A stretch of DNA of 24,607 nucleotides from a bacterium (GCA_046757025.1 JBHHXN010000069.1:1-24607); one strand, 5' to 3'; shown: positions 454 through 19,270, counted from the stretch's first letter. Notes: generated from the letters alone by a model not told the origin. Translations and numbers: made by a program.

Positions 454-990
454 TTAAATGATTATTCGAACGATCACCATTTGACACAGTAGATTTTCAC
501 TATCTCGACCTTCAGGCGTTAAATAAATGTGTTGAATTCGTGTCAAGAGGTCCTTTTTTTCAAGCCTTTCGTAAAAGGTCATCAGGTCAGCAAATCGCCC
601 AGTACACTCGATTTTAACCTGCAATTTTCTCAGGTCGGTTGCACTGCCATTGAGGCTTCGGTGTGATTTTAACTCCAAAGAGGAGATGCGGGGTTGAAAT
701 CGAACCATTAGCACTTGGGTGCCGGCAGCCGTTTGAATGTCTTTGAATAAGTTGGCCAATTCGTCCTGACCGTTATTTTCATCAAATGTCTGAATAGGGA
801 TGATATCTGACCTTTGCACTAATTTTAGCGTACTGATATATTGCTTCTGCACCTGATTTAACCTGAGAGTGCTGTTCTGCCATTTTGTGAGTAGGGGAGA
901 AATTACGATGGCTCTTAATAAAAAAATCATAGCGAATGCAATTGTGATGGTCATTAATATTTTTTCTCGAGAAGCGAATTGTCTTTTCAT
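454..990 (-). CDS. PilO/GspM-like inner-membrane platform protein (type IV pilus or T2SS assembly)
   Basis: The 178-aa product has a short N-terminal cytoplasmic segment, one TM helix (ILMTITIAFAMIFLLRAIVI) and a predicted coiled-coil periplasmic region. This is the PilO/GspM architecture. It sits immediately after the PilM-PilN gene, where pilO follows pilN in the conserved order. Confidence 0.5.
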   Translation of the reverse strand: MKRQFASREKILMTITIAFAMIFLLRAIVISPLLTKWQNSTLRLNQVQKQYISTLKLVQRSDIIPIQTFDENNGQDELANLFKDIQTAAGTQVLMVRFQPRISSLELKSHRSLNGSATDLRKLQVKIECTGRFADLMTFYERLEKKDLLTRIQHIYLTPEGRDSENLLCQMVIVRIII

Positions 991-1047
991 GATTAATCCA
1001 TGTGTTGAGTTAGGTGAAATATTTGTTCAAACAAGTTAGATGATTTT

Positions 1048-2619
1048 TCATTTTAAGGTAATCTCCATCTCAAATTCGATCGCTACCCTCTGGTTTTGCA
1101 TTTTTCGACGATTGGCTGTTGTGATTGTCACTTGTTTGATGGTCGGTTGCTGTGATAAGCTCTGGGGTATTTCAAAGACTTCTTTGAGTGCATTAGCTGT
1201 TGCGCGTAGCAATATTTTCTCACCGCGCATAAAAGTTAAAGAACTGAGCTCCACCGACGCAGGCAGCTTTACCAGTACCTGGGCAATTTGAGCCGCAGTT
1301 AATGTAGATGGTCCCAACTGCTGTTGCAGCTCTTGTTGAATGATTTGCCATTTCTTGATTAAATTGACTTCAGGATTTAGCGCAGAGATGCTTTCCTGCA
1401 TTTGCTGAATTTCTGAATGACGATTGTTTAATTCGATGTTGACTGCGATGACAGTTAATATGGCTAGGTAAAATATCAACAGGACTGAGTAACAAGTCTG
1501 ACGAATAAAATGGCGCCACCGCTGACTTTGCTGCTGCTCTTCCGAACGTAAATCCATCAAATGGTTATGGCGGGCTTTGGCCATGCCAAAAAGGGTTGAA
1601 ATTGAAAACCAGTGACGCATTGAGGCGATGTTATCTGAATTATTTGAGGCGCCGCAAGGAATCATAAGGTCGAACCAGCTAACCGGCTTATTCAAATTAT
1701 CAGTAAGCTTTTCTACCAGAGCATTAATTCGTGGAAGCCAGCCTGTAAGTACCACGTGCTCCACGCACCCATGCGAAGAATTTGATTCGAACATGGAAAG
1801 CGTTCTCTGTAATCCGACTGTTAATTCATTAATCCAGGTTTCATATATTATCGTGTGGTGCATGCCTTCCAGGCTTTTCATTAAACCGGCCACACCTTTA
1901 CCGAAACTTCTGCAATACTGAAATTGACCCTGATCGATTATGATCACGTTGACGGTTGAAAAATCGATATCCACCAAAGCCAGACATTTGTCCTCATGCT
2001 CAGGAAATGCTTTCGAGGAGATGACAAAAGAGTGGTAAATGGCTTCGACATTCAAACGAATGGCATCGATAGTCAATCCGACTTTCCGGCAAATATTGCT
2101 GTAGCGATCGATCTCTGCTTTGCGAGCTATGACTGCCAGGACCTGGGTGTAACCATCCTCTTCTTTCGCAACGACTCGGAAATCATAGACAATTTCTGCC
2201 GGTGAAATGGGAATATTTTTTTGTAATTGAAAACCGACCATTTTACGCAGTTCATCCTTGTCATGGCCTGGTAACCGCAACATTTTCACATGAACGTTCT
2301 GACGTGGAATCGAAATCGCGGCTTTAGTTCCGGGTCGTAACCGTAATTCCTGGAGAATCTCGAAGAGCACTTTTCCAATCTCTTCGTCCTGCTCGGATGA
2401 AACGTACTTGACCTTCAAGAAATGTACATGCTCCTTTTTTCCGCGTCCATCCAGCACGATGAGTTTGATCAAGTTAACATCGAATTCCACCGCCACAAAC
2501 GTGCTCGATTGCGGCAATAATTCGTACACCCAATCCCTGAACCCGTTGAAACGGTCGTTAGATTGAATATCGAGCATTGAAGTTGTTGTTACAGTCTTGG
2601 TAAGCGTTTCCATTTGCAA
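1048..2619 (-). CDS. PilM-PilN fusion protein (GspL-like). An actin-like cytoplasmic domain is fused through a single TM helix to a PilN-like periplasmic domain.
   Basis: The first ~370 aa have a PilM/FtsA-like actin fold. They are followed by a hydrophobic helix (YSVLLIFYLAILTVIAVNI) and a ~130-aa C-terminal coiled-coil/periplasmic region. The position between gspK and the pilO-like gene matches gspL. The ORF track starts at a TTG at 2619, but the ATG at 2613 (METLTK...) is the more likely start. Confidence 0.55.
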   Translation of the reverse strand: MQMETLTKTVTTTSMLDIQSNDRFNGFRDWVYELLPQSSTFVAVEFDVNLIKLIVLDGRGKKEHVHFLKVKYVSSEQDEEIGKVLFEILQELRLRPGTKAAISIPRQNVHVKMLRLPGHDKDELRKMVGFQLQKNIPISPAEIVYDFRVVAKEEDGYTQVLAVIARKAEIDRYSNICRKVGLTIDAIRLNVEAIYHSFVISSKAFPEHEDKCLALVDIDFSTVNVIIIDQGQFQYCRSFGKGVAGLMKSLEGMHHTIIYETWINELTVGLQRTLSMFESNSSHGCVEHVVLTGWLPRINALVEKLTDNLNKPVSWFDLMIPCGASNNSDNIASMRHWFSISTLFGMAKARHNHLMDLRSEEQQQSQRWRHFIRQTCYSVLLIFYLAILTVIAVNIELNNRHSEIQQMQESISALNPEVNLIKKWQIIQQELQQQLGPSTLTAAQIAQVLVKLPASVELSSLTFMRGEKILLRATANALKEVFEIPQSLSQQPTIKQVTITTANRRKMQNQRVAIEFEMEITLK

Positions 2620-2656
2620 TAGCTCACTTTTCTAAAGCGATGAATTTTCTAAACGA

Positions 2657-3673
2657 TTATTCTGACCATGCCACTATTTCTAATTCTGTTGCGCTAATGC
2701 GATTAACTGTGGCTGCAATCAATTTTTGGGCCTGGCCATTCGAAGTTTTGCCGAGTGAGTAAACAGTGAAATGAGTTGATGTTACACCGATGAGCTGTTC
2801 AGATACCAGGCGGTTAATTTGCACCTGTTCCGCTGGCGTGAGTTTCAGGTGCTTCATCAATTTTTGTAGAATGTCCGTTTCCTTTTTGAAAATCACGTCA
2901 TCTTCCGTGAATGGTGTGAAATCAGACCCCCAGCGTAACTTGCAGATTTTTTTAGCCAGTTCTGATTTTAACCCTAATGTTTGTAAAATTTTTATTGAAG
3001 TCGTGTTGAGATTGACTCCGCCATCGCCGTAAACCGTGACGAGTCCGCTGAGTCGGTGAATATCTTCGTCCGTAAATCCTTTCACCATTTTCAGCTCTTG
3101 CAAAAAATCGATGTCTGCATTTTTACAAGTGTAACGGCGTCGGTGGTTCAGATAATAGTCACTTTCCGCGCCGCCGGGTTCTGGCTCATCATCCTCATCC
3201 CGCCAATCGAGCAGTGCGGCCAATTTGTCTGCGGACATGCCCGGCAGCCGTGCGAGTATCTCTTTCGATACCCGGTTGATATTGATTTTGCGATTCTCAT
3301 CGTAAATTCCGTACACTTGATGTGGGCCGTCTGAAAGCTCAACGGTCTCATAGGTGATTTCAAAATGTCCGCCGACAAACGATACTTTTTTGAACAGTTC
3401 TGGCCTATTCGCCCAGTTCTCATCAAAGGCGTCGTACGATTGCAGAGAATCTTTGATCGCATCTGCTTTCAGGACCGCGATGGCATGCTGGATACCCGCT
3501 CTGGCCAGCCAGGCAGCTTTTACTGCTTGCAGCCTATCGTTATCCCACCGCAGGCCATGCAAAGCATGGCGCATCATGCCTGCTGAAATCAGGCTTAGCA
3601 GCGCCATCATCCACAATGCCGTGATGGACAGGCTGCCTTTCTCGTTTAAATGTAATTTAATTTTCCGTTTCAT
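2657..3673 (-). CDS. gspK: Type II secretion minor pseudopilin GspK
   Basis: The ORF track extends to 3775. The plausible start is the internal ATG at 3673 (MKRKIKLHLNEKGSLSITALWMMALLSLISAG), which gives a prepilin-like hydrophobic N-terminus and ~339 aa, the usual GspK size. This start overlaps the gspJ stop (3657-3659) by 17 nt. The gene follows gspH-I-J in the canonical order. Confidence 0.55.
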   Translation of the reverse strand: MKRKIKLHLNEKGSLSITALWMMALLSLISAGMMRHALHGLRWDNDRLQAVKAAWLARAGIQHAIAVLKADAIKDSLQSYDAFDENWANRPELFKKVSFVGGHFEITYETVELSDGPHQVYGIYDENRKININRVSKEILARLPGMSADKLAALLDWRDEDDEPEPGGAESDYYLNHRRRYTCKNADIDFLQELKMVKGFTDEDIHRLSGLVTVYGDGGVNLNTTSIKILQTLGLKSELAKKICKLRWGSDFTPFTEDDVIFKKETDILQKLMKHLKLTPAEQVQINRLVSEQLIGVTSTHFTVYSLGKTSNGQAQKLIAATVNRISATELEIVAWSE

Positions 3674-4277
3674 TTGAATTGAATTTTCCACTCGTTCGAA
3701 TCGGGTAAATGATTTCTTCGATCTCTCCAGCAAAGGCGGTGGCCATTTCGATGCGCACGGCCAAGGGTAATTCATCCGATGCGGACCAGCTGTCAGTCCA
3801 GATCGCGGTTTGATTTTGCAAATAACTGAACCGTAGTGATTTTACATTTGATAGCAGTTGTTTAGTTTTTTGCTTACCGTCCAAATTAGTGCTTGTGCGC
3901 ATGAGATTTTTCGCAGAATAGTCCGGTGCAGTTTCAAAATAGTAGCTGATGAAACGGTACCGCACCTGCCCGTTTGCATTGCAATAAGAAGCCGTAAATC
4001 GAAGAGAATCTGAATGGCCTCGGAATGAGTTTAAACGAAATGCTCGAATACTCCTGAGATCTGATTTCAGCAGCAGCCATGCCGCTGAAGATTGTATCAA
4101 AACCTCACTTTTCTGCCTGACTGCGAAGCGGGCAGCAACTGCCTTTTGCATGATTGCGACCGTGGCCAACCCGACGATGGCGAAAATAGACATGGCAGTC
4201 AGCACTTCGATGAGGGTGAAACCGTGGTCATTCGTCAAATCCGTTAGTCTGAAATAGTTTTTGATGTTTTTTCTCAT
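3657..4277 (-). CDS. gspJ: Minor pseudopilin, GspJ-like (prepilin-type N-terminal cleavage/methylation domain)
   Basis: The sequence contains the class-III signal peptide motif ...NDHG|FTLIEVLTAMSIFAIVGLATVAIM. The product is 206 aa, and the gene lies between the gspI-like and gspK genes. Confidence 0.5.
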   Translation of the reverse strand: MRKNIKNYFRLTDLTNDHGFTLIEVLTAMSIFAIVGLATVAIMQKAVAARFAVRQKSEVLIQSSAAWLLLKSDLRSIRAFRLNSFRGHSDSLRFTASYCNANGQVRYRFISYYFETAPDYSAKNLMRTSTNLDGKQKTKQLLSNVKSLRFSYLQNQTAIWTDSWSASDELPLAVRIEMATAFAGEIEEIIYPIRTSGKFNSNETEN

Positions 4278-4286
4278 TTGTTTACT

Positions 4287-4733
4287 TTAGCGTTCTTTTG
4301 CGACCGAATTGGTTTGATCGGCAGACAACAAAGTGGCAAGTGTGAGTGAGCCGTGTTTACCCCGATCAGTCCAGTCCACGGTCACCGAGACTTTGTTTAA
4401 GCCGGGCACGGCTGACCACTCCGATGTCTGTACCTGGCAATTGAAAATTTTCTGGTCGAATTTGATGAGTTTGTTTTCTGACATTAAACTTGCCGATGGC
4501 TTTAATTCTATTTTTGATAACAAGTTCTCGGCTATCTCAAGGGCGGGTCGATAATAATGCTGACGAAATTGTAAAACGTGCACCGACTTCTGGCATACCT
4601 GAATGAGGGCAATCATACCGAAAGACAGAAGTGCCAGCGCCAGCAGCGCCTCAAACAGCACAAAGCCGTTTTCAGAGGTTTTGATCGTCTGTTGAGCGCA
4701 CATCAATTTGTTCATTTTTGAATCGTATTTCAT
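4287..4733 (-). CDS. gspI: Minor pseudopilin, GspI-like
   Basis: The prepilin motif ...SENG|FVLFEALLALALLSFGMIALI is present. The product is small (about 125-148 aa depending on the start). Alternative starts exist at 4715 and 4703. The gene overlaps the 3' end of gspH, which indicates translational coupling. Confidence 0.5.
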   Translation of the reverse strand: MKYDSKMNKLMCAQQTIKTSENGFVLFEALLALALLSFGMIALIQVCQKSVHVLQFRQHYYRPALEIAENLLSKIELKPSASLMSENKLIKFDQKIFNCQVQTSEWSAVPGLNKVSVTVDWTDRGKHGSLTLATLLSADQTNSVAKER

Positions 4734-5160
4734 ATTTTCTACCTTGTTTAGTCACCAGGCTAATTGAATCCAGTGGATACATGCCATCAACTGACCAGAA
4801 AAGCACGACATCGAACGGCCGCAGTTCGAGTCCATCGATCAGCCTTTGCTTTTTCATGACTTGCCATTGTTCATGAACCGGCTCAGCCAGTTTGGTTGAA
4901 GAAATCACTTTAGTTTGCCGTTCAATGGTAAAGCCGGTTCCGTCAGACCAAATTTTAAAACGACGTTGCTGTCCCGTGAATAGGGTTTGCTCATGAATCA
5001 TTTGTAATTCTTCGGCGATGCCTTCCGCTGTGTTTTTTAATTGCATTTCCTGGTAGGAATTTGATAATCGCGGACTCATGGCTGCAATCAACAAACCTAA
5101 AATGAGCAACGTCAGGCATAATTCGATGAGAGTCAGACCACGGTCATTGTCCAGAAGCAT
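4672..5160 (-). CDS. gspH: Minor pseudopilin, GspH-like
   Basis: The ORF track extends to 5256. The ATG at 5160-5158 has a GGGAGG Shine-Dalgarno sequence 9 nt upstream (minus strand, 5175-5170). It gives the leader MLLDNDRG|LTLIELCLTLLILGLLIAA, a typical 8-aa prepilin leader. This start overlaps the gspG stop by 17 nt. Confidence 0.55.
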   Translation of the reverse strand: MLLDNDRGLTLIELCLTLLILGLLIAAMSPRLSNSYQEMQLKNTAEGIAEELQMIHEQTLFTGQQRRFKIWSDGTGFTIERQTKVISSTKLAEPVHEQWQVMKKQRLIDGLELRPFDVVLFWSVDGMYPLDSISLVTKQGRKYEIRFKNEQIDVRSTDDQNL

Positions 5161-5599
5161 CGTCATGGGCCTCCCAATTTGTGACATCGTCGTCGCCGCC
5201 TTTTTGCAGGTCCGGACCGAAAGAAACCAAATCATAACTGTCCGGATTGTTTTCACCCGGGCAGGTGTAAATGTACTCTTGTTTCCAGGGATCTTTTAAA
5301 TTGGTATTTTTTTTCAGATAGGGTCCTTGCCAGGAAACCGGTAGAGGTGGTGTGTCTGGCTTTCTAAGTAGAGCCTCTAACCCCTGCTCGGTCGTCGGGT
5401 AGATACCGTTATCTAAAAAATACAACTCTAAAGCCATGGCCAGATTGGCATTGATGTCGGCATGTGCGGCTGCCCGCCTGGCCTGTTCAGTGCGCCCGGC
5501 AAATTGCGGCACCACCAGTGCCACCAGGATGCCCAGTATGATAACCACCATCATGACCTCGATAAGTGTGAGGCCGGCTTCATTTTGCAATTTTGTCAT
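5144..5599 (-). CDS. gspG: Major pseudopilin GspG (type II secretion system protein G)
   Basis: The leader is MTKLQNEAG|LTLIEVMMVVIILGILVALVVPQF. The C-terminal signature KDPWKQEYIYTCPGENNPDSYDLVSFGPDLQKGGDDD matches the GspG hallmark (DPWGNPY.Y..PG....YDL.S.G.DG..GG.). Confidence 0.8.
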   Translation of the reverse strand: MTKLQNEAGLTLIEVMMVVIILGILVALVVPQFAGRTEQARRAAAHADINANLAMALELYFLDNGIYPTTEQGLEALLRKPDTPPLPVSWQGPYLKKNTNLKDPWKQEYIYTCPGENNPDSYDLVSFGPDLQKGGDDDVTNWEAHDDASGQ

Positions 5600-5626
5600 G
5601 ACCCAGGTCCTTTCGTTTGCATGATC

Positions 5627-7117
5627 TTACCGCACCACGATCATTCTTTTAGTTTGCTCAAAATTTTTTGTTTTTAAGCAGTAGAGATAAATGCCCGACG
5701 GCACAGGCTGTCCCGCCTCGTTTAAGCCATCCCACTTTTGATAATAAATTCCAGCCTGTTGTTCACGGCTAATCAGGGACCGCACTTTTTGCCCCAGTAA
5801 GTTAAATATTTCTAATTTCGTTAAGGCTTCAAATGGCAGCTCATATCGAATAACACTGCCTTGATTGAAAGGATTTGGATAGTTTTGTGAAAGCGAATAT
5901 TTTGCCGGCAGTGTCAGCGCTTGCGCCGAGACATCTTGTTTGTTGAATTCATCGTTTTCCCGGGCTTGACTTTGTTGCGCTGAGTTTGGAAATTTAAATT
6001 CCACTTCGTCGGATGGGGGGCTTTCTTCAAATAGAGTCGGTCCATACGCGGTTATGGCAATATAATAGGTGCTTTGCACAGATAAGCTGATTTCTTTTTC
6101 AGTGACCAAACCGACATCGATATGATGAGTATAGTTACCACTGGATAAACCGTAATGAATTCGATAGCCGGCCAGGTCCGGCTCCGTGTTTGGATTCCAG
6201 CTCACTCGCACTGTTTTAAAATCATTTTTGATTTCATGAAAAATGACTTTCCGCACTTTTAAATTCAAATCCTGATTCTTTTTTGGATTGGAATAATCAT
6301 TGGTGAACACGAAATAAAGCAACGTATCCGATTTGTTCGGTGTCATCTGTGCGAGAGACAACACCTGCCATTTGAGCGACGTGACCTGTTTTTCTTCTAA
6401 AAGATTTCGAGGGCCGTTCACTGCCAAACCGATATTCGGCCAGCGGTTAGCTGCGGTATCGGCGCTCACTTCTGCTTCGATTAAAAAACTCGAATACGGT
6501 ACAGAAGATATCGGACAGGCGATCCAGGCATTCTTTTTTTTGCCCAGACCCCAGACCACCACGTGATCATTTTCCACACTCACATTTTTTGAGAATTGCA
6601 TTTGTGCAGCAGGAATCGTGAAATATTCCTGAACAATTTTTTTAAACCGGACCGTTCGAATTCTCAAGTTGAGATCCTGCTTTTTTTTGCGTTTGTAGAA
6701 GTCGTTTGTGAAAACAAAATAAATTGAAGAGTCATTTTTATCAGGCGTAAATTGCCCTAGTGTAAGCCAGTGCCAGTCTACAGACAATACGCGTTTTTCT
6801 ACCTGCAAATTGCTGGAATCGTTAAATGCCACGGCAATATTAGGCCAGCGATTGGCGGCGGTGTCCGCGCTCACTTCCACTTCGACTGAAAAGTTCGAAA
6901 AGGGTAGGACCGCTAACGAAATAGCAATCCAGGCATACTTATTTCGTCCCATTCCCCAGATCACAACATGATCGCCTTCTGCAGTCACATTTCGAGAAAA
7001 TGTCATTTCGGATGCCGGCACAAGTAACTCCTGGTTGAGCGGTTGCCCCAGGCTAATTCTGCAAAGCGCAATCAGGATGACCAAAATTGAAATTTTCGTT
7101 AAAGTTGCTGCTAACAT
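5627..7117 (-). CDS. Secreted multidomain protein: signal peptide, two tandem copies of an unassigned ~133-aa domain, a fibronectin type III domain and a T9SS (Por) C-terminal sorting domain
   Basis: The N-terminal signal peptide is MLAATLTKISILVILIALCRISLG. The duplicated domain spans aa 33-165 and aa 168-300 and shares the motif EVSADTAANRWPNI. An FN3-like block follows (VRVSWNPNTEPDLAGYRIHYG...YYIAITAYG). The C-terminus, LSQNYPNPFNQGSVIRYELPFEALTKLEIFNLLGQKVRSLISREQQAGIYYQKWDGLNEAGQPVPSGIYLYCLKTKNFEQTKRMIVVR, fits the type-A T9SS CTD consensus (NYPNPFN..T.I.Y.L......L.IY...G..V..L......AG.......WDG.N..G..V.SG.Y.Y.L). Confidence 0.75.
   Translation of the reverse strand: MLAATLTKISILVILIALCRISLGQPLNQELLVPASEMTFSRNVTAEGDHVVIWGMGRNKYAWIAISLAVLPFSNFSVEVEVSADTAANRWPNIAVAFNDSSNLQVEKRVLSVDWHWLTLGQFTPDKNDSSIYFVFTNDFYKRKKKQDLNLRIRTVRFKKIVQEYFTIPAAQMQFSKNVSVENDHVVVWGLGKKKNAWIACPISSVPYSSFLIEAEVSADTAANRWPNIGLAVNGPRNLLEEKQVTSLKWQVLSLAQMTPNKSDTLLYFVFTNDYSNPKKNQDLNLKVRKVIFHEIKNDFKTVRVSWNPNTEPDLAGYRIHYGLSSGNYTHHIDVGLVTEKEISLSVQSTYYIAITAYGPTLFEESPPSDEVEFKFPNSAQQSQARENDEFNKQDVSAQALTLPAKYSLSQNYPNPFNQGSVIRYELPFEALTKLEIFNLLGQKVRSLISREQQAGIYYQKWDGLNEAGQPVPSGIYLYCLKTKNFEQTKRMIVVR
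6218..7021 (-). repeat. Intragenic tandem duplication (2 x ~400 bp) encoding the two paralogous domains of the T9SS-CTD protein
   Basis: Nucleotide-level similarity is visible. For example, 6436-6480 (gccagcggttagctgcggtatcggcgctcacttctgcttcgat) matches 6840-6884 (gccagcgattggcggcggtgtccgcgctcacttccacttcgac). The protein-level alignment of the two copies is about 45-50% identical. Confidence 0.7.
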
Positions 7118-7147
7118 ATTTTCACTTTTGATTTGATATGAATAAAA

Positions 7148-7924
7148 TCAAAATAAATTAACTGAACCGTTTAAGGTGTTTCCATAAATGAGCACCAATA
7201 GGGCTCCTGCACCCAGAAAAGGTCCAAATCGAATTTCCCGAGTGTGCCGGGATTCCGGCCGGATCCCCATTCGAACGCATCCAAACACTACGCCAGAAAA
7301 GGCCGCCACCATGATGGTCGTGAGTCCGAGCTGCCAACCCAGAAAGGTTCCGATCATGGCCGCAAATTTGATGTCGCCTCCGCCCATGACCTCCGGCTTT
7401 CGAAAAATAAATTCACCCAGCCGGCCACTGGCATAGAGAAATCCACCACAAAGCAACAGGCCCCAAATGGGGTCGGTCAGTTTAAGCGATGAAAGAATTC
7501 CCGCCAGTGCGACTCCGGCTGCTATACCAGTGAGGGTTATTTTATCTGGAATGATTTTATGTTCTAAATCCATATACACCCCGACAACCAGCAGCCCTGC
7601 GAATAGCCAATTCGACAAAAGGATTTTAACATCGGAGAACTGGCTAAAAAGGAGTATGAATACCAGGCCGGTGATGGTTTCCAGGATGGGATATTTTACT
7701 GAAATAGTTTTGTGACAGCAGCGACTTTTACCGTGCAATAATAAGTATCCGAACAAGGGTAATTTTTGCAGCCAGCTCAAATGAGTGCCACAATGGTCGC
7801 AATAGGAGCGACCCAGCACCACGGACTCACCGCGCGGTATTCGAAATGAACACAGCCCGGCAAAACTGCCAACGGCTATACCGATTAAAAAAGTGATTAC
7901 AAATGGAAATATTTTAAAGATCAT
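7148..7924 (-). CDS. gspO: Prepilin peptidase (A24 family, PilD/GspO)
   Basis: The product is a 258-aa polytopic membrane protein with the tetra-Cys motif CDHCGTHLSW...CCHKTIS and Asp-containing loops typical of type IV prepilin peptidases. Its start overlaps the gspF stop by 1 nt. Confidence 0.8.
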   Translation of the reverse strand: MIFKIFPFVITFLIGIAVGSFAGLCSFRIPRGESVVLGRSYCDHCGTHLSWLQKLPLFGYLLLHGKSRCCHKTISVKYPILETITGLVFILLFSQFSDVKILLSNWLFAGLLVVGVYMDLEHKIIPDKITLTGIAAGVALAGILSSLKLTDPIWGLLLCGGFLYASGRLGEFIFRKPEVMGGGDIKFAAMIGTFLGWQLGLTTIMVAAFSGVVFGCVRMGIRPESRHTREIRFGPFLGAGALLVLIYGNTLNGSVNLF

Positions 7925-9141
7925 TATTGCACCACGAAGTCAATTTGAAAAATGGGCATCATCATGGCAAAGACGATAAAGCCAATGACGGCACCTATCA
8001 AAATAATCATGGCGGGCTCAAGGAGCCGCGTGAATAAGGATACCCGGCGTTCCACCTCTTGCTCATTGGATTTAGCTATTCGGTTCAGCACCTTTTCCAG
8101 TTGATTCGTGTCTTCTGCGATAGATATCATTTGCCCCAGGAGAGCGGGTAAATGATCGCCGGCTGCTAGATTGTCTCCCATACGCCCGCCACTTCGGATT
8201 GCTTCTGCCGTTTTACTGAATTCCTGTTGCAGAATTAAATTTTTGCAAGCTGCCACCACGACCTCAAATGCCTGATGAATGGGTACTCCATGAGCGAGCA
8301 GTGCGCTCATGGTACGAGCAAATTGCGTAATCTCTGCCTGGATTATCAGGGAGCCAAAAAACGGCAAACGCAGCTTTAGTTTGTCCAACCTAAGTTTGAA
8401 TTCGTTCTGTGTGTATTTAATTTTAATCATGGTGGCCAGAATCAAACCTGCCAGTAACATCAACGGCCATTGATTTGAAACACTGTTTGAAACCGACAAC
8501 AATATTTTGGTGGGCAGCGGTAGTGTCTGGCCGATTTCATGAAACATGGTCACGATTTGCGGTACCACAAATGTCAGCAGAATGGTGACAGTCAGAATCC
8601 CCATACTCAGCATCAACAGAGGATAAGCCAGAGCGGCGCGAATCTGCTTTTGTACGGAGTCTTCCTTTTCCAGGTAATTGGCCAGATGTTCGAGAACCAA
8701 TTCCAACATCCCGCCGGCTTCCCCGGCTTTGATCATGTTCACGTAAAATTTTGAAAACATACCAGTCCAGGCAGCGCATGCTTCAGAAAAACGGCTGCCG
8801 TCCTGCAGGCGTTCTAAAAGATCGGGTAAAACCCTCGCAAACGATCCTTTCGAAGCTTGCTTTTGCAACAGGAATAAAGCGGAATGCACCGTCATCCCCG
8901 CTTCCAGCATGTTCGCCAATTGTCTGGTAAAAAGTATTACCTCTGATTTATTTTTTCGTGAAATGAGATTCAGAAGGAAACCGGATTTGTGCTCTCTCTG
9001 GCTTTTGAGCGGTACAATCTCCACCGGGAACAGCCCTTTTTCAGCGAGCTGCGCAGCCAGCAAATTGGCGCTTTCTGCTTGCATGGCACCCTGAACCATT
9101 TTTTCAGGGGTCGATCTGGCTAAATATTCAAACATTGGCAT
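7924..9141 (-). CDS. gspF: Type II secretion / type IV pilus inner-membrane platform protein GspF/PilC
   Basis: The 405-aa product has two T2SSF-type repeats and three TM segments. The N-terminal region (...AAQLAEKGLFPVEI...) is typical GspF. It lies 3 nt downstream of gspE. Confidence 0.8.
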   Translation of the reverse strand: MPMFEYLARSTPEKMVQGAMQAESANLLAAQLAEKGLFPVEIVPLKSQREHKSGFLLNLISRKNKSEVILFTRQLANMLEAGMTVHSALFLLQKQASKGSFARVLPDLLERLQDGSRFSEACAAWTGMFSKFYVNMIKAGEAGGMLELVLEHLANYLEKEDSVQKQIRAALAYPLLMLSMGILTVTILLTFVVPQIVTMFHEIGQTLPLPTKILLSVSNSVSNQWPLMLLAGLILATMIKIKYTQNEFKLRLDKLKLRLPFFGSLIIQAEITQFARTMSALLAHGVPIHQAFEVVVAACKNLILQQEFSKTAEAIRSGGRMGDNLAAGDHLPALLGQMISIAEDTNQLEKVLNRIAKSNEQEVERRVSLFTRLLEPAMIILIGAVIGFIVFAMMMPIFQIDFVVQ

Positions 9142-9144
9142 GGA

Positions 9145-10764
9145 TTATTTCTCAACCTCCTGTGTAACACGCAAAACTTCATCTAACGTGGTAATCCCAC
9201 GACTAATCTTTTCGATGCCGTCGTTGCGCAGACTTACCATGCCTTTTTCGATGGCTAATTTACGTAGCTGATTGGCTGGCGTTTTCATCACGATTTGTTC
9301 TCGAATTTCATCGTCGATTTTCATAAATTCGTAGATGGCGGTACGCCCAAAATAGCCGCTCTGTTTGCACATTTCACATCCCCTCCCTCGATATAATGTA
9401 TGATTTCCGCCCCCGAGTTTTCGAAATAACGTTTGCCGACCATTGCGGACATTTTCGCTTTTTTTGCAGTCCGTACAAATTACGCGAACTAATCTTTGCG
9501 CCACGATACATTCAACTGAAGCGGCAATTAAATAAGGCTCGATTCCCATGTTGATGAGTCGGGCCACGGCACTGGCCGCATCGTTGGTGTGAAGAGTGCT
9601 GAATACCAGATGGCCGGTCATGGCCACCTGAATAGTCACCTCGGCAGTTTCATTGTCGCGAATTTCGCCCACGAGCATGACATCGGGATCGTGGCGCAGC
9701 ATGGACCGCAGGCCCTGCGCAAACGTGAGGCCAATTTTAGGGTTCACCTGCACCTGCGAAATGCCGGTCAATTGATACTCGATGGGATCCTCCACCGTGA
9801 TGATTTTTCGCGCACTATCATTGATTTTGTTTAAACAAGAATACAGGGTGGTAGTTTTGCCGCTACCAGTCGGCCCGGTCACCAGGATGATTCCGTGTGG
9901 TTTTTCCAATAACTGTTCGATCAAAATTAAATCCCGCCGCATCAAACCCAGGCTTTCGAGATTTAGGGCTACGTGATTGCTGTTTAAAATTCGGATATTT
10001 ACCGACTCCCCAAAAGGTGTGGGTAAAATTGAAATCCGCAGATCCAATTCCTGCTGGCCTGTGCGCACTTTTATGCGTCCATCCTGAGGAAGCCGCTGTT
10101 CCGCAATGTTTAAATTGGCCATAATTTTGATGCGGGAAACAATGGCAGGATGCAGATGTTGTAGGGATTCCGGTACAGAAACCTCGTAGAGCACCCCATC
10201 AACCCGATAACGGATGCGTAAACGCGATTCATAAGGTTCGATATGGATGTCTGTGGCCCGCTCCTGAAAGGATTCGATGAGCAATTCGTTCACAAAAGCC
10301 ACGATGCTGGCTTCTTCGGATTGCTGTTCAAGGTCGGTTGCATAATCGGCAGTCAGATCAATGTAATGGCTGGCATCGGTTTCATTCAGCATTCGATGGA
10401 CGGTTTCGGCTCCTAAACCGTAGATATGCCGCAATGCCTCTTCAATCTGTTCGGCGTTGGCCTTTAATGGTTCGATCTCCTTTTTTAGAAGCCATTTGAG
10501 TTCATCAAGGGTGGCTAAATCATCAGGTTCCATGGTGGCTATTTGTAACCGATCTCTATCTTCACCCAAAGGAATAATTTTATACTGACAGGCCACCGGT
10601 GCGTCGATGAGATGGTGCAGCGATTTGGATGCCGGAGATTTTAACAGTTGCGACAGTAATACAGCGGCATTTTTATATTTGGATTTCTTATTTTCTGCCA
10701 GCGGCAACGGTTGCTTTACAAGTGTCTTTTTCTTGAGATTTTGGGATTCAGGTAACCAGCTCAA
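9145..10764 (-). CDS. gspE: Type II secretion ATPase GspE (PilB/GspE family)
   Basis: Walker A is GPTGSGKTTTLY. The C-terminal tetra-Cys zinc motif is CTDCKK...CEMCKQSGYFGRT, and the N1 domain motif is present. There is no in-frame ATG near the N-terminus. The ORF track uses the TTG at 10770. The second TTG at 10764-10762 lies 7 nt downstream of a perfect AGGAGG (minus strand, 10777-10772) and is the more likely start. Confidence 0.85.
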   Translation of the reverse strand: MSWLPESQNLKKKTLVKQPLPLAENKKSKYKNAAVLLSQLLKSPASKSLHHLIDAPVACQYKIIPLGEDRDRLQIATMEPDDLATLDELKWLLKKEIEPLKANAEQIEEALRHIYGLGAETVHRMLNETDASHYIDLTADYATDLEQQSEEASIVAFVNELLIESFQERATDIHIEPYESRLRIRYRVDGVLYEVSVPESLQHLHPAIVSRIKIMANLNIAEQRLPQDGRIKVRTGQQELDLRISILPTPFGESVNIRILNSNHVALNLESLGLMRRDLILIEQLLEKPHGIILVTGPTGSGKTTTLYSCLNKINDSARKIITVEDPIEYQLTGISQVQVNPKIGLTFAQGLRSMLRHDPDVMLVGEIRDNETAEVTIQVAMTGHLVFSTLHTNDAASAVARLINMGIEPYLIAASVECIVAQRLVRVICTDCKKSENVRNGRQTLFRKLGGGNHTLYRGRGCEMCKQSGYFGRTAIYEFMKIDDEIREQIVMKTPANQLRKLAIEKGMVSLRNDGIEKISRGITTLDEVLRVTQEVEK

Positions 10765-10869
10765 TTTCAAGCCTCCTATTTTTCGGCTATTAAAAGGGTC
10801 CTTGATCCTGTTCTTGCAATCAATTAGAATTCAATCGAGATTTTAAGCGATGATTTGATTTCCCAGGAA

Positions 10870-10885
10870 GGCAAACGGTGTACCA
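10870..10885 (-). promoter_or_regulatory. Candidate sigma-54 (-24/-12) promoter upstream of gspE
   Basis: The minus strand reads TGGTACACCGTTTGCC. Against the consensus TGGCACG-N4-TTGCW it has GG and GC at the exact 10-nt spacing. The predicted transcription start is about 90 nt upstream of the gspE start. A sigma-54-dependent activator is encoded 2.6 kb away. Confidence 0.35.
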
Positions 10886-11380: not shown

Positions 11381-12509
11381 GAGGATTGTCCTGGGTAGTT
11401 AATGTCAAGGAGACGCGACCAAGTTGTTGATTCAGTTCTGTATGAGGAGCCGCATTTTACCTGCCTGATTGATACCTTGCTAATAAAATTGATTAAATGA
11501 AAGACTATGTTTATGCCATCGTTTCAGATACACGCACTAGAGCCGATATTCAGCTTTATTATAAACCTATATAAACAGGTTCCGCGCATGGGTGTATTTA
11601 GGCACTAAAGAGTAAGACAATGTCAACAGGTGGTACTGCTGTTTGCGCTAATTTTAACAGTGGCAAATGTCATACCTGCTTTGGTGCAAATAAACGATTT
11701 TTTATTTTATTTATTTTTATAATTCCAAATTAAAACATCAGAATGTACAATAGTCCGATTATATTCTACCAACACGGATCCCCTTTCTGAAATCGTCAAT
11801 AAAGACGATTAATTGGAGAATTCTGCGTTAATAAAAAAGAATTGAGTCGTTTCTGTATTCGCTGAAAATAATTGACAAAATGATGATTACAATGTAAAAA
11901 TGTCCTCATGAGAAAAATCCATCGTTAGGGTGTTTTAATGGTCGCAAAATCAACTTCATACGTTGGTGCATAATAAATCTGAAGAAGCGTTGGGGTCCGA
12001 ATTAAGACAGTCTTGAAATAATTGATAATAAGAGTCTTATGTCTGAATAGCATGAAGGCCGCCTTGATTTTCAGGCCGGAATTTGAACAGTTTTACCAAT
12101 TATTTCCGTATGCCAAGTTGAAATGAATTATTTTTAAGTTATTAATTAATAAAAATTAATGTTGTTACCATTTAGTCAATTATTTTGTTGGCACGCTCTT
12201 TGAATTAATAATAATTGTAGCAGAAGAATGAGGATGGAGCAATCATTTGCTTCCGGTATGAGGTTGTGTAAACGGTGGGATTGAGCCAGTCCGAGTGGAG
12301 ATGCAACGAATTCAAGTTCTTTTCTTGTTCCCATCCCTGACAAAATATTAATCCTATTAAAGTTCATATAGCTGGCATTTCGCTGAAGATTGAAGTGAAA
12401 CAACGCAATGTTTTTGTTTATTGCATGCAAATTCTAATCATGCGGCCACTGGATTTTATGTGGAACGCTTAGTTCCATAAATTACTGGGCAAATCAAAGG
12501 GAGGTGAAC

Positions 12510-13460
12510 ATGTCGATACGCAGTGACCAAGTACAAAATAGATGGCAGATGCATGCCTTTCAGCCCCCTAATCAAGCGTTGAAATCGTTGATTGAAAAGG
12601 CAGAAAAAATCGGGGATGGCCTGAACTCAGCCTCAAAGACGCCTTTTGAACGAATTCGTGATCAAGCGGATGCGGAGATGACTGTGGGTCAGATGTCCGC
12701 GATGATTTCTCATGAGTTTCGGAATGCGCTGACTTCCATCAAAATGATTCTCGAGCTTCAAATCGAATCCAGAAATTTAAATCCATCGGAAAAAAAGTCA
12801 CTAAGCGTGGCGCTTAAGTCCATTAACCACATGGTCGATGTTGTCACCCGGCTTCTCAATTTTTCAAGGCCAATGCCTCCTGATTTTCAATGTGAGGACC
12901 TCAATGAAGTGGTAACCGAGAGCCTTCAGTTTGTGAAGACGCAATTAAAAAAAGAAAGAATCACTATTCAACCGGCTTTTGATTCAAACATTCCTACTAT
13001 GTTACTCGATGCCCACCGCATCAAAGAAGCGCTGGTAAATCTCCTTTTAAACGCCATGCATGCTTTAGAAAAGAAAAAACCAGCGGGCGGCAACAGAATG
13101 ATTTCAGTGGCGACTAAAAGACACACCCTTCACCAGGCCCTTAGCGATCGTTCTTATTCGGGTTCGTGCAAAATTCCAAGAAGTGAGGATGGCAATTTTG
13201 ACCAACCCTTCCTGGAATTGGCTGAGGGTACCGAATGTGTTTTAATTGAAATAAAAGACAATGGTGAGGGCATCAATCCCGAGCATTTCCGGCACATATT
13301 TGATCCTTTTTATACCACGAAATCCAGAGGCACCGGACTGGGGCTTGCCATCGTGAAACAAACTATAAATGAGCACGGCGGAATGATTACCATAAACAGT
13401 TTGCTAGGACAGGGAACCACAATTAAATTATATTTACCTTTGCTAAATTGCAGGAGATGA
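12510..13460 (+). CDS. Cytoplasmic sensor histidine kinase (HisKA + HATPase_c, no TM helix and no recognisable sensor domain)
   Basis: The H-box is MISHEFRNALTSI, the N-box LLLNAMHAL, G1 IKDNGEGI and G2 GTGLGLAIV. The ATG at 12510 has a GGGAGG sequence 5 nt upstream. The GTG at 12504 used in the ORF track lies inside that ribosome-binding site. Confidence 0.8.
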   Translation: MSIRSDQVQNRWQMHAFQPPNQALKSLIEKAEKIGDGLNSASKTPFERIRDQADAEMTVGQMSAMISHEFRNALTSIKMILELQIESRNLNPSEKKSLSVALKSINHMVDVVTRLLNFSRPMPPDFQCEDLNEVVTESLQFVKTQLKKERITIQPAFDSNIPTMLLDAHRIKEALVNLLLNAMHALEKKKPAGGNRMISVATKRHTLHQALSDRSYSGSCKIPRSEDGNFDQPFLELAEGTECVLIEIKDNGEGINPEHFRHIFDPFYTTKSRGTGLGLAIVKQTINEHGGMITINSLLGQGTTIKLYLPLLNCRR

Positions 13461-13464
13461 CAAC

Positions 13465-14853
13465 ATGGGTCTCAAAAAAGTGATGTTTGTAGATGATGAC
13501 GATGAAATCCTATTTGCTTTCCGTGAGGTGGTTAAGAAAGAAGGTTATTTACCGGTTGAAGCCCGGGATGGGCAACAAGCATTGGAACAATTCGACCTTG
13601 AAAAACCAGAAGTGATCTTCATGGATGTCTCCATGCCTAACCTGGACGGACTGGAAGCTCTCAAACAGTTTAAAAAGAAAAACCGCTTTATTCCGGTGAT
13701 TATGATTACCGGCAAAGGAAATATGAAAACGGCCATCAATGCCATGAAATTGGGGGCATTCGATTATCTCACCAAACCGTTATCCGTGAAAAAAGTGCGT
13801 CAATCGATTGCTCAGGCCCTGTCCAGCTCAAAAAAATCTTCAGCAAAACCAATACACTTCGACGCAGAGACCATGGATCGTCACGAGCTCATCGGAGTCA
13901 GCGATGTGATGCAGAATGTCTACAAACTAATTGGTTCGATTTCAGTGACACCGAACCACACTTCTGTTTTGATCACCGGTGAAAGCGGCACCGGCAAGGA
14001 ATTGGTCGCTCGTGCCATTCATAAAAACGGCCCTCATGCGGAAGAGCCCTATATGGCGGTTAATTGTACAACCTTACCGGAGAATCTGCTGGAATCCGAA
14101 CTTTTTGGCCATGAGAAAGGCGCTTTTACAGGCGCGGCTCAGAGAAAATTAGGTAAATTTGAAGTGGCTGGATGTGGAACGATTTTTCTGGATGAAATTG
14201 GCGATCTGTCAACCGCACTGCAACAAAAATTGTTACGCGTGCTACAGGAACGTCAGTTTGAGAGATTAGGAGGACACGATCAAATCGAAGTCCAGGCGCG
14301 CTTTGTCGCTGCCACCAATCAAAACATCGCTGAGAGTACCATAAACGGCCGTTTTCGCGAAGACTTATTTTATCGTTTGAACGTAGCAACCATTCATTTG
14401 CCGCCTTTGAGAGAACGCAAGGAAGACATCGTTTTGCTCGCCTACTATTTTCTGACAAAATATAACCATCAATTTAATAAAGCCATAAACGGTTTTTCAA
14501 AACAGGCCCTGTCGCTTTTGCAAGCTTATTCCTATCATGGCAATGTTCGCGAACTGGAAAACCTCATCGAACGTGCGGTGATGTTGACCCAGGGCAAGGT
14601 AATCCTTCCTGAAATATTCAGTGAAATGTTTACACCACCGGCTCCGGAAGCGACTCTCCTTCCCATAATCAGCTCGGTATTTAAAGAATCCCGTGAACAC
14701 CTTTTGAATCAGTTCGAGAAGCAGTTTGTAACCGAGCAGCTCACCAAAAATTGTGGGAATGTCAGTGCGGCCGCAAGAATGAGCCAAATGTCCCGCCAAA
14801 ACTTTCATCGACTGCTATCCAAGCACCAAATCCAACCGGAGCGCCTGATCTGA
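13465..14853 (+). CDS. Sigma-54-dependent response regulator (NtrC/PilR family: REC, AAA+ and HTH domains)
   Basis: Receiver domain is VDDDDE...FMDVSMP...LTKP. The AAA+ domain has Walker A GESGTGKE and the GAFTGA sigma-54 contact motif (EKGAFTGAAQ). The C-terminus carries a Fis-type HTH. The start lies 4 nt after the histidine kinase stop. Confidence 0.85.
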   Translation: MGLKKVMFVDDDDEILFAFREVVKKEGYLPVEARDGQQALEQFDLEKPEVIFMDVSMPNLDGLEALKQFKKKNRFIPVIMITGKGNMKTAINAMKLGAFDYLTKPLSVKKVRQSIAQALSSSKKSSAKPIHFDAETMDRHELIGVSDVMQNVYKLIGSISVTPNHTSVLITGESGTGKELVARAIHKNGPHAEEPYMAVNCTTLPENLLESELFGHEKGAFTGAAQRKLGKFEVAGCGTIFLDEIGDLSTALQQKLLRVLQERQFERLGGHDQIEVQARFVAATNQNIAESTINGRFREDLFYRLNVATIHLPPLRERKEDIVLLAYYFLTKYNHQFNKAINGFSKQALSLLQAYSYHGNVRELENLIERAVMLTQGKVILPEIFSEMFTPPAPEATLLPIISSVFKESREHLLNQFEKQFVTEQLTKNCGNVSAAARMSQMSRQNFHRLLSKHQIQPERLI

Positions 14854-17562: not shown

Positions 17563-18882
17563 ATGCAAAGAGTTACTGGATTCTGTTTTTTGTGGCTGGT
17601 CTTGACTTGTGAATATGTTTGGGCGTCACCGTCCTCTTCCAATCCATCCATAGCGATAGATACCTTGTGGGTGCTGCTGGCGGCATTTTTGGTGTTTTTT
17701 ATGCAAGCCGGATTTGGCATGGTGGAAGCCGGTTTGATTCGCGCGAAAAACGCGGGTAATATTCTGATGAAAAATATGCTGGATTTCTGTATGGCCTCGT
17801 TGGGATTTTTTCTCTTTGGCTACGCCCTGATGTTTGGCGGAACCGAACCTTTTTTTGGTACCGAGGGCTGGTTTTTAACTGGCGTACAGGCCCCCAACGA
17901 TTTACCTCTGTACGCATTCTGGATGTTTCAGGCGGCGTTTTGTGGCGCGGCCGCTACCATCGTAGCAGGGGGCATGGCGGAACGCATGAAATTCGTGGCC
18001 TACCTCATGTATTCCTTCGTTATTTCAGCGCTGGTTTATCCCATTGTCGGTCACTGGATTTGGGGAGGCGGCTGGCTGGCAAATCTCAATTTTCATGATT
18101 TTGCTGGTTCAACTGTGGTGCATACGCTTGGCGGTTTTGCGGCTTTGGTGGGTACCATCATTCTCAAGCCGCGCACGGGTAAATTCAATTCGGATGGCTC
18201 GCCCAATTTTATTGCGGGTCACAACATGCCGCTGGTTTCGCTGGGAGTCTTTATTTTGTGGTTTGGCTGGTTCGGTTTTAATCCCGGCTCAACCCTTGGC
18301 TTTGGGGATCCGGGACAGGTAGCGCGCATCGCGATCAATACCAGTCTGGCTGCGGCCGCGGGCGCCATTGCCGCCATGTTCACGGCCTGGGGAAAATTCG
18401 GCAAACCGGACTTAGCGTTGACTTTGAATGGCGCTTTGGCCGGTTTGGTGGCCATCACTGCGCCCTGTTCGGTGGTTACGCCCGGCAGCGCCATTTACAT
18501 CGGCGGCATTGGCGGTGTGCTTTGTATTTTAGGTGTACGCTGGCTCGATCGCCTACGGATCGATGATCCCGTGGGCGCGGTGCCGGTGCATGGCTTGAAC
18601 GGCGTCTGGGGCACCTTGGCAGTCGGACTATTCGGTCAGATAGCGCTCGGGGCACCCCATGACGGTCTTTTTTATGGCGGTGGATTTCTGCAATTAGGCA
18701 TTCAGTCGCTGGGTATTTTCGCGGTGATCATTTTCGTCGTCGCCTCCATGTGGCTGATTTTCAAAACCATCGACGCCCTGGTCGGCCTGCGCGTTTCCGA
18801 AGTGGATGAATTGCGGGGGTTGGACATCGGGGAACACGGTATGGAATCGTACAGCGGATTTCAGATTTTTTTAACAGAATGA
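17563..18882 (+). CDS. amt: Ammonium transporter (Amt/MEP family)
   Basis: The 439-aa product has a signal peptide followed by 11 TM helices. Amt signatures include LVFFMQAGFGMVEAGLIR, WIWGGGWL and HTLGGFAALVGTIILKPR. Confidence 0.9.
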   Translation: MQRVTGFCFLWLVLTCEYVWASPSSSNPSIAIDTLWVLLAAFLVFFMQAGFGMVEAGLIRAKNAGNILMKNMLDFCMASLGFFLFGYALMFGGTEPFFGTEGWFLTGVQAPNDLPLYAFWMFQAAFCGAAATIVAGGMAERMKFVAYLMYSFVISALVYPIVGHWIWGGGWLANLNFHDFAGSTVVHTLGGFAALVGTIILKPRTGKFNSDGSPNFIAGHNMPLVSLGVFILWFGWFGFNPGSTLGFGDPGQVARIAINTSLAAAAGAIAAMFTAWGKFGKPDLALTLNGALAGLVAITAPCSVVTPGSAIYIGGIGGVLCILGVRWLDRLRIDDPVGAVPVHGLNGVWGTLAVGLFGQIALGAPHDGLFYGGGFLQLGIQSLGIFAVIIFVVASMWLIFKTIDALVGLRVSEVDELRGLDIGEHGMESYSGFQIFLTE

Positions 18883-18928
18883 TTGAATCCATGTAATTTA
18901 AATCAATTAAAGATTGAGAGAACCCCTT

Positions 18929-19270
18929 ATGAAACTCATTATTGCAACCATTCAACCGCATCAACTACCGGCTGTAAAAAAGTCGCTATTTGATGCCCAG
19001 GTCTACAAAATAACCGTCTCCAATGCGCTGGGATGCGGCGAAGAAAAAGGATATCATGAAACTTTTCGAGGGGTAGAGCACGAAGTGAGCTTGCTCAAGA
19101 AAGTGCGTTTGGAGATTGCGGTTAACGAGGATTTTGTGGAGCCCACCATCGCGGCGATCATCAAAGGCGCGCGCACTAACCAGGTTGGGGACGGCAAAAT
19201 TTTCGTGTTGGACTTGCAGGAGTGCATTCGAATTCGTACAGGCGAGCGTGGCGGGCAGGCCATTGGTTGA
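18929..19270 (+). CDS. glnK: P-II family nitrogen regulatory protein (amt-linked, GlnK-type position) with a non-canonical T-loop
   Basis: The 113-aa product aligns to GlnB/GlnK without gaps. Conserved motifs include GDGKIFV, IRIRTGE and K58. The ATG at 18929 has a GAGAG sequence upstream. The ORF track instead uses a TTG at 18914. Confidence 0.75.

Follow-up and report, generated by a model that had tools for sequence, protein, structure and literature searches.

A predicted glycan-binding protein with a type IX secretion-type tail, encoded as an insert in the type II secretion operon of an FCB-related bacterium

Type IX secretion system (T9SS) cargo proteins that carry a type-A C-terminal sorting domain (CTD; TIGR04183/PF18962), such as the carbohydrate-binding module (CBM)-bearing cargo of Cytophaga and Flavobacterium and P. 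gingivalis RgpB, combine a Sec leader, a modular passenger with a linker, and a C-terminal beta-sandwich of about 80 amino acids (aa). The protein described here shares the modular passenger, linker, and C-terminal beta-sandwich and has a predicted Sec leader, but its host is a relative of Calditrichota and KSB1 rather than a member of the Bacteroidota, and its gene lies inside an operon for a type II secretion system (T2SS); no such arrangement of a T9SS-tailed gene within a T2SS operon came up in the literature consulted. The gene (the target) occupies positions 5627..7117 on the minus strand of JBHHXN010000069.1:1-24607 (assembly GCA_046757025.1), a 24.6-kb stretch of a metagenome-assembled genome (MAG) to which we refer as the window, and its open reading frame (ORF) and domain evidence define a protein of 496 aa with a predicted signal peptide, two CBM36/60-like modules, an FN3 domain, a linker, and a T9SS type-A CTD. 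We favor, with a probability of roughly 0.6, the interpretation that the target is a non-catalytic cell-surface glycan-binding protein, and an accessory, lineage-specific insert in a conserved T2SS operon rather than a component of the T2SS or its pseudopilus.

Three other groups of proteins invite comparison. The Ca2+-dependent modules CBM36 (1ux7, Paenibacillus Xyn43A) and CBM60 (PF16841) are the closest relatives of the repeated modules by fold, but the target modules are only 9-15% identical to solved CBMs, are attached to no enzyme, and each have about 45 additional N-terminal residues beyond the Pfam match. In Bacteroidota, the surface glycan-binding proteins (SGBPs) that belong to polysaccharide utilisation loci are likewise non-catalytic chains of beta-sandwiches that capture polysaccharide at the cell surface, but they are lipoproteins encoded with SusC and SusD, whereas the target lacks a lipobox, carries a CTD instead, and has no Sus genes nearby. 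Finally, the initial annotation of this locus compared the target with PilY1-type adhesins, a likeness that proves to be positional only, since both are non-pilin genes embedded in a type IV filament cluster: PilY1-type adhesins sit among the minor pilins, whereas the target, which has a Sec leader and no match to a PilY1 or vWA family among its Pfam and NCBIfam matches, lies between the peptidase and the major pseudopilin and is absent from most related operons.

The two modules are a genuine tandem duplication of ~133 aa, as first proposed, with residues ~33-161 and ~166-294 being 56% identical over 129 aa without gaps (E 4e-57). The repeat had been thought assignable to no family, but Pfam CBM60 matches it in two stretches (48.9 bits against a cut-off of 28.2), and fold comparison places both modules in the beta-jelly-roll group of CBM6/35/36/60. 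Module 1 (residues ~30-160; 6638..7030, minus strand, as are all target features) includes the best CBM60 stretch (residues 78-160) and is modelled as a beta-sandwich with a pLDDT of ~90; module 2 (residues ~165-295) occupies 6233..6625. The Pfam match and the fold comparison, which are the sole basis for this link, identify the repeat as a putative CBM36/60-type module; a profile of the repeat had no match among solved structures even at E 10, and an alignment-based protein search with the repeat yielded one fragment only. Across the family the CBM-like modules share invariant Asn-Asp (FTND), Asp-x-Asn (DLNL), and RWP motifs, and domain searches detected no catalytic domain in the target or its close relatives.

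The remainder of the protein is equally modular. A predicted Sec signal peptide (residues 1-24; 7046..7117), read from the sequence as MLAATLTKISILVILIALCRISLG followed by Q at +1, is hydrophobic with a visible SLG/Q site, includes a leader helix at residues 2-20 of the AlphaFold2 (AF2) model, and aligns with the leaders of homologues over the same stretch. It is of the ordinary Sec type, and the target has no N_methyl/prepilin motif, unlike GspG, GspH, and GspJ. We note that Gln is the first residue past the likely signal-peptidase site in most family members (..SLG/Q, ..AF/Q; window 7046-7048, N-termini of P0003-P0025), which brings to mind the "Q-rule" of Bacteroidetes that appears in the reference list of PMC11285876. 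The FN3 spacer domain (residues ~298-378; 5984..6226) reported in the initial annotation is upheld: although the target protein alone has no Pfam fn3 match, the family profile matches solved FN3 domains (E 4e-9), homologues carry PF00041, and a beta-sandwich is modelled at residues 300-375. A linker follows (residues ~379-412; 5882..5983) that is predicted to be disordered, with a pLDDT below 50 at residues 379-416. Overall the full-length AF2 model has a pLDDT of 80, with sandwiches at residues 30-160, 165-295, 300-375, and 421-494, and a Foldseek search with it returned generic multi-beta-sandwich matches only, B. thetaiotaomicron SGBP-B among them.

The C-terminal domain (residues 413-496; 5630..5881) begins ...SQNYPNPFN... 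and matches TIGR04183 over residues 413-494, scoring 44.0 bits (cut-off 23; E 1.6e-11) and covering positions 2-71 of the 72 in the model, ending 2 residues ahead of the stop codon; its strands (residues 421-494, pLDDT ~73-92) are modelled as a compact Ig-like beta-sandwich. The description of this tail as a textbook type-A CTD thus holds for TIGR04183 but not quite for PF18962 (Por_Secre_tail), which narrowly misses (26.2 bits against 27), while FlgD_ig, a sister model overlapping PF18962, passes (32.8 against 27). These scores bear on a different view, that the target is a substrate of the surrounding T2SS, its tail being either an ordinary Ig-like module or a T9SS-like tail handled by the Gsp secretin in FCB relatives (Fibrobacterota-Chlorobiota-Bacteroidota group) without a canonical T9SS. 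The genes for T2SS substrates in some cases lie within or next to the gsp cluster, as pulA does with the pul genes of Klebsiella and as sslE/yghJ does in the T2SS-beta operon of E. coli, where its neighbor is the peptidase gene pppA; a Sec leader is what T2SS substrates carry; and it is FlgD_ig, not PF18962, whose Pfam threshold the tail passes. We nonetheless consider such a route improbable, because i) TIGR04183 is clearly above its cut-off and lies at the extreme C-terminus; ii) the NYPNPF-type start of the tail is common to the other CTD proteins recovered; iii) 108 homologue C-termini among the matches listed bear this tail joined to unrelated passengers, just as T9SS cargo families do; iv) we know of no T2SS that uses a C-terminal sorting domain; and v) paralogues of the target replace the tail with a dockerin, so that it behaves as an anchoring or sorting module. 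A further point in favor of the T2SS route is that T9SS machinery outside Bacteroidota is unverified for these phyla (PMC4793230, PMC5317091).

The target family is tiny: a search across 1.84 billion representative proteins found only 16 clusters at 50% identity. The closest relative, P0002 (L001:280-1767; L001 and L015 are the same locus), is 54% identical, has the same architecture, and lies directly upstream of gspG in a like operon of another MAG (GCA_046757525.1). P0003 (46% identical) also has the same architecture, but follows an ABC-2 transporter with no gsp genes nearby. Other close relatives carry one CBM copy, FN3, and a type I dockerin replacing the T9SS tail. These dockerin-bearing paralogues, from KSB1 and related MAGs (P0004-P0013, P0122, P0123, and P0125), share the CBM60-like and FN3 head with the target (36-43% identity over the full length, 48-64% in the module) but have a single CBM copy where the target has two, and carry a type I dockerin where the target has its T9SS tail. 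Because relatives swap the T9SS tail for a dockerin, the C-terminal module behaves like an interchangeable surface anchor on a lectin head that stays the same. In the L015 orthologue, the CBM repeats are 94% identical in protein and 96.5% identical in DNA over 376 nucleotides (nt), while those in the window are 55% identical in protein by the same comparison and 74% identical in DNA over 157 nt; the near identity in L015 implies that the duplication is recent, or has been homogenised by gene conversion, in that lineage.

Among four contigs read with dockerin or short forms, two have the paralogue after the same ABC-2 transporter, and in all four the paralogue (L002:10001-11583, L007:10001-11449, L006:10001-11732, and L004:1913-3723) is followed by a gene for a 152-155-aa protein. 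This partner has a weak, sub-threshold Pfam cohesin match (E 0.0098) and no sequence match among solved structures; paralogue and partner may form a dockerin-cohesin pair. A pilin-like identity for the small gene after the paralogues was also considered, and was ruled out on reading the sequences. Cohesin proteins bearing T9SS tails are present in an assembly recovered through its CTD matches. In L171:1-12553, a cluster of several large proteins pairs cohesin domains with T9SS-type tails, an arrangement suggestive of scaffolds of a cellulosome-like kind that this FCB-related assembly anchors by way of CTDs.

We then turn to the operon. The minus-strand gene order in the window is gspE-F-O-[target]-G-H-I-J-K-L-M, with the genes for GspE, F, G, J, K, L/M, and O all found in colinear order, and the ORF and Pfam evidence confirms the position first assigned to the target, between the prepilin peptidase gene (7148..7924) and gspG (5144..5599). 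A GspG scan of species-representative genomes yielded 12 close loci (GspG 71-79% identical), whereas in a metagenome scan the best match was 58% identical and no members of the clade were added; the nearest GspG relatives belong to Calditrichota, KSB1, and unclassified MAGs, in agreement with the FCB-group-like lineage suggested at the outset. All 12 related loci keep the order gspE-F-O-G-H-I-J-K-L-M, and in 11 of them (L009-L014 and L016-L020) gspO is followed directly by gspG; the insert is found only in the window and in L015/L001, where the gap upstream of it is ~245 nt and the contig edge holds only a doubtful gspO tail. By concatenated operon-protein distance, the operon nearest to both insert carriers is L009, which has no insert; L015 is 0.558 from L009 but 0.896 from the window, in a tree that is poorly resolved. 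A second lineage-specific insertion in L015, an additional response-regulator gene placed between gspI and gspJ (L001/L015:3696-4091), indicates that the operon tolerates insertions.

How much should be made of the target's position? It has been proposed that the T9SS substrate is functionally coupled to the filament machine, and in its strongest form this would make the target a working T2SS or type IV filament accessory, a surface lectin or adhesin deliberately tied to the machine, for example to capture a polymer that T2SS-secreted enzymes break down, or to dock the pseudopilus or secretin region to a substrate, with the two export routes coupled. The target does sit within the operon, on its strand and a short way from both neighbors, a like insert 54% identical in sequence lies directly upstream of gspG in a second genome, and T9SS-tailed genes adjoin gspE in three related operons (below). 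However, 11 of the 12 closest operons, L009 included, lack the insert; homologues usually lie elsewhere, many of them after an ABC-2 transporter and most with a dockerin for a tail, and even P0003, with the same architecture, occurs in an unrelated context; and there is neither a pilin-like leader nor any T2SS or type IV pilus accessory domain among the Pfam and NCBIfam matches. In view of the patchy distribution of the insert, the operon distances, and the contexts of the homologues, the target is not a conserved part of the machine, and although a functional accessory is possible, we think it unlikely; these comparisons weaken the case for a coupling of cargo and filament.

The genes beside gspE deserve separate consideration. 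In L009, L014, and L020 a large T9SS-tailed protein is encoded immediately upstream of gspE on the same strand (L009:2-2761, L014:2-1549, and L020:3-1481, all plus strand), at distances of 585, 230, and 228 nt respectively. The L009 passenger consists of ASH/HYDIN-type Ig repeats and Laminin_G_3, and is unrelated to the L014 and L020 passengers, which consist of Big_9/cadherin repeats and are related to each other. A tail hidden Markov model found CTD-bearing ORFs in the T2SS-centred loci only upstream of gspE and at the insert, that is, only in or next to the operon, which would favor a functional accessory. On the other hand, the frequency of CTD genes in the background of these genomes may be high, and since the upstream CTD genes are 228-585 nt from gspE they are probably separate transcription units. 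A broader proposal is that T9SS-tailed surface proteins are truly linked to the Gsp machine throughout this Calditrichota/KSB1-related clade, either as a co-regulated module for polymer capture and enzyme secretion, or because TIGR04183-like tails are exported via the Gsp secretin without a canonical T9SS. The footprint of such a link would be CTD genes in or beside the operon, as seen at 5 of 13 loci and reflecting three or four independent events, but we regard the proposal as a long shot.

Is the target expressed with the operon in which it lies? The target starts 30 nt after gspO ends (7118..7147), and gspG starts 27 nt after the target ends (5600..5626), the second of these gaps having AAAGGA upstream of the gspG ATG. 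No sigma-70-like or terminator-like site was detected in either gap; such sites occur at chance level regionwide. The operon had been described as translationally coupled; the close spacing and common strand stand, but since gspF and gspO overlap by 1 nt whereas the target overlaps neither neighbor and is separated by 30 and 27 nt, the term is too strong for the target. The GC content and codon usage of the target resemble those of the rest of the operon. A recent horizontal acquisition of the target was considered and is unsupported by these measures. Given the same strand, the 30- and 27-nt gaps, the lack of a terminator-like site, and the operon-like GC content and codon usage, co-transcription is likely, probably driven by a promoter upstream of gspE that the target shares with the T2SS operon.

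The same measures speak to a further explanation, that the locus is an artefact of assembly or binning, or that the target is a decaying remnant of no consequence. The window does derive from a MAG, but the ORF is intact, all four domains fold with high confidence in the model, composition and codon usage match those of the operon, and contig JBHHYI010000016, an independent assembly, likewise has a target orthologue directly upstream of gspG; we find this explanation scarcely credible.

A candidate sigma-54-like promoter, TGGTACaccgtTTGCc (TGGTAC-N5-TTGC; 10870..10885, minus strand), was found by pattern search ~100 nt upstream of gspE; the overall match count of this pattern is not above chance, and it is the position and strand alone that are suggestive. 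A divergent pair of genes for a histidine kinase and a sigma-54 activator lies at 12504-14853 on the plus strand (activator gene 13465-14853), and the T2SS operon may be sigma-54 dependent. In this connection we note that sigma-54-like -24/-12 sites are found in both intergenic regions flanking the kinase/activator pair, at 10870-10885 (minus strand) and 12189-12204 (plus strand).

The target ORF runs from an ATG at 7117 to 5627. In the deposited annotation the protein (P0001, 464 aa) begins 32 codons downstream of this ATG (window 7022-7117). Because every homologue aligns at its N-terminus from the ATG at 7117, the public start looks wrong, and the P0001 start call would delete the signal peptide.

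The remaining T2SS genes in the window, all on the minus strand, are as follows. A response regulator gene (11380-11012) lies upstream of gspE (9145..10770; T2SSE 450 bits, with MshEN), which is followed by the platform protein gene gspF (7924..9141; T2SSF 193 bits) and by the gspO/pilD-like prepilin peptidase gene (A24_N_bact 95 bits, Peptidase_A24 64 bits). Downstream of the target are the major pseudopilin gene gspG (T2SSG 106 bits, with N_methyl) and the rest of the operon (454..5256), comprising H-like and I-like pseudopilins, GspJ, GspK, a PilM/PilN-type GspL, and a GspM-like protein, identified by Pfam T2SSJ, T2SSK_1st, PilM_2, PilN, and N_methyl; some of the starts within these limits are probably later than given. 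The I-like pseudopilin ORF has no Pfam match, and the T2SSM match of the GspM-like gene (990-454) is just 16.7 bits against a cut-off of 27.8. The GspL slot is occupied by a 523-aa fusion of PilM_2 and PilN (window 1048-2619, minus strand), a form kept in all 12 related operons. There is no GspD secretin gene in the window; in L001, however, gspM is followed by a gene for a 215-aa protein and then by the secretin gene, and a homologue of the 215-aa gene starts at the left edge of the window. No Rfam matches were found within the window. Elsewhere in the window (17563-19270, plus strand), and unrelated to the target, an ammonium transporter gene adjoins a gene for a P-II regulator, followed by a long ORF.

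No T9SS gene lies within the window, which is a small part of the genome. Nor were any T9SS machinery genes found around CTD proteins on two long contigs, a result that is uninformative. The literature on T9SS in FCB phyla other than Bacteroidota is divided (PMC4793230, PMC11285876, PMC5317091), a 2024 paper proposing that T9SS may occur in several further FCB phyla (PMC11285876), and we found no papers on T9SS in KSB1 or Calditrichota.

Several points count against our view of the target as an accessory surface lectin: i) the insert sits at an identical intergenic position in two genomes with operons that are not mutual closest relatives; ii) a neutral passenger poorly explains this shared site, which requires several losses, two gains, or transfer; iii) the presence of unrelated T9SS-tailed genes beside gspE in three related operons hints at a non-random association; iv) the PF18962 score of the tail is 0.8 bits below the cut-off; v) the patterns used in the promoter scan are sigma-70-like and do not cover FCB-type promoters; vi) TXSScan found T9SS in Bacteroidetes only (PMC4793230); and vii) the genome paper for Caldithrix abyssi reports no gliding machinery of the Bacteroidetes type (PMC5317091).

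If the target is a surface glycan-binding protein as we propose, expression would follow that of the T2SS operon, and the Sec-type leader would take the protein to the periplasm. A T9SS-type translocon would then recognise the type-A CTD and carry the protein across the outer membrane, to be displayed or released at the surface. There the two CBM36/60-type jelly-roll modules are predicted to bind polysaccharide, probably in a Ca2+-dependent manner, with the FN3 domain and flexible linker serving as a spacer that would hold the CBM modules off the anchor. Any benefit of co-expression is a matter of speculation; the target might, for example, hold the cell on a polymer that is being attacked by T2SS-secreted enzymes.

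The target and its relatives add a small and rare subfamily of CBM36/60-like lectin modules, apparently displayed by means of either a T9SS tail or a dockerin, in little-known FCB-related phyla, and they provide an example of anchor-module swapping. On our interpretation, the target's position within the T2SS operon is an oddity seen in two genomes and not a conserved design. If, however, the recurrent adjacency of CTD genes to the operon should be non-random, it would suggest that type II and type IX secretion communicate, or that CTD proteins outside Bacteroidota have an unrecognised route of export.

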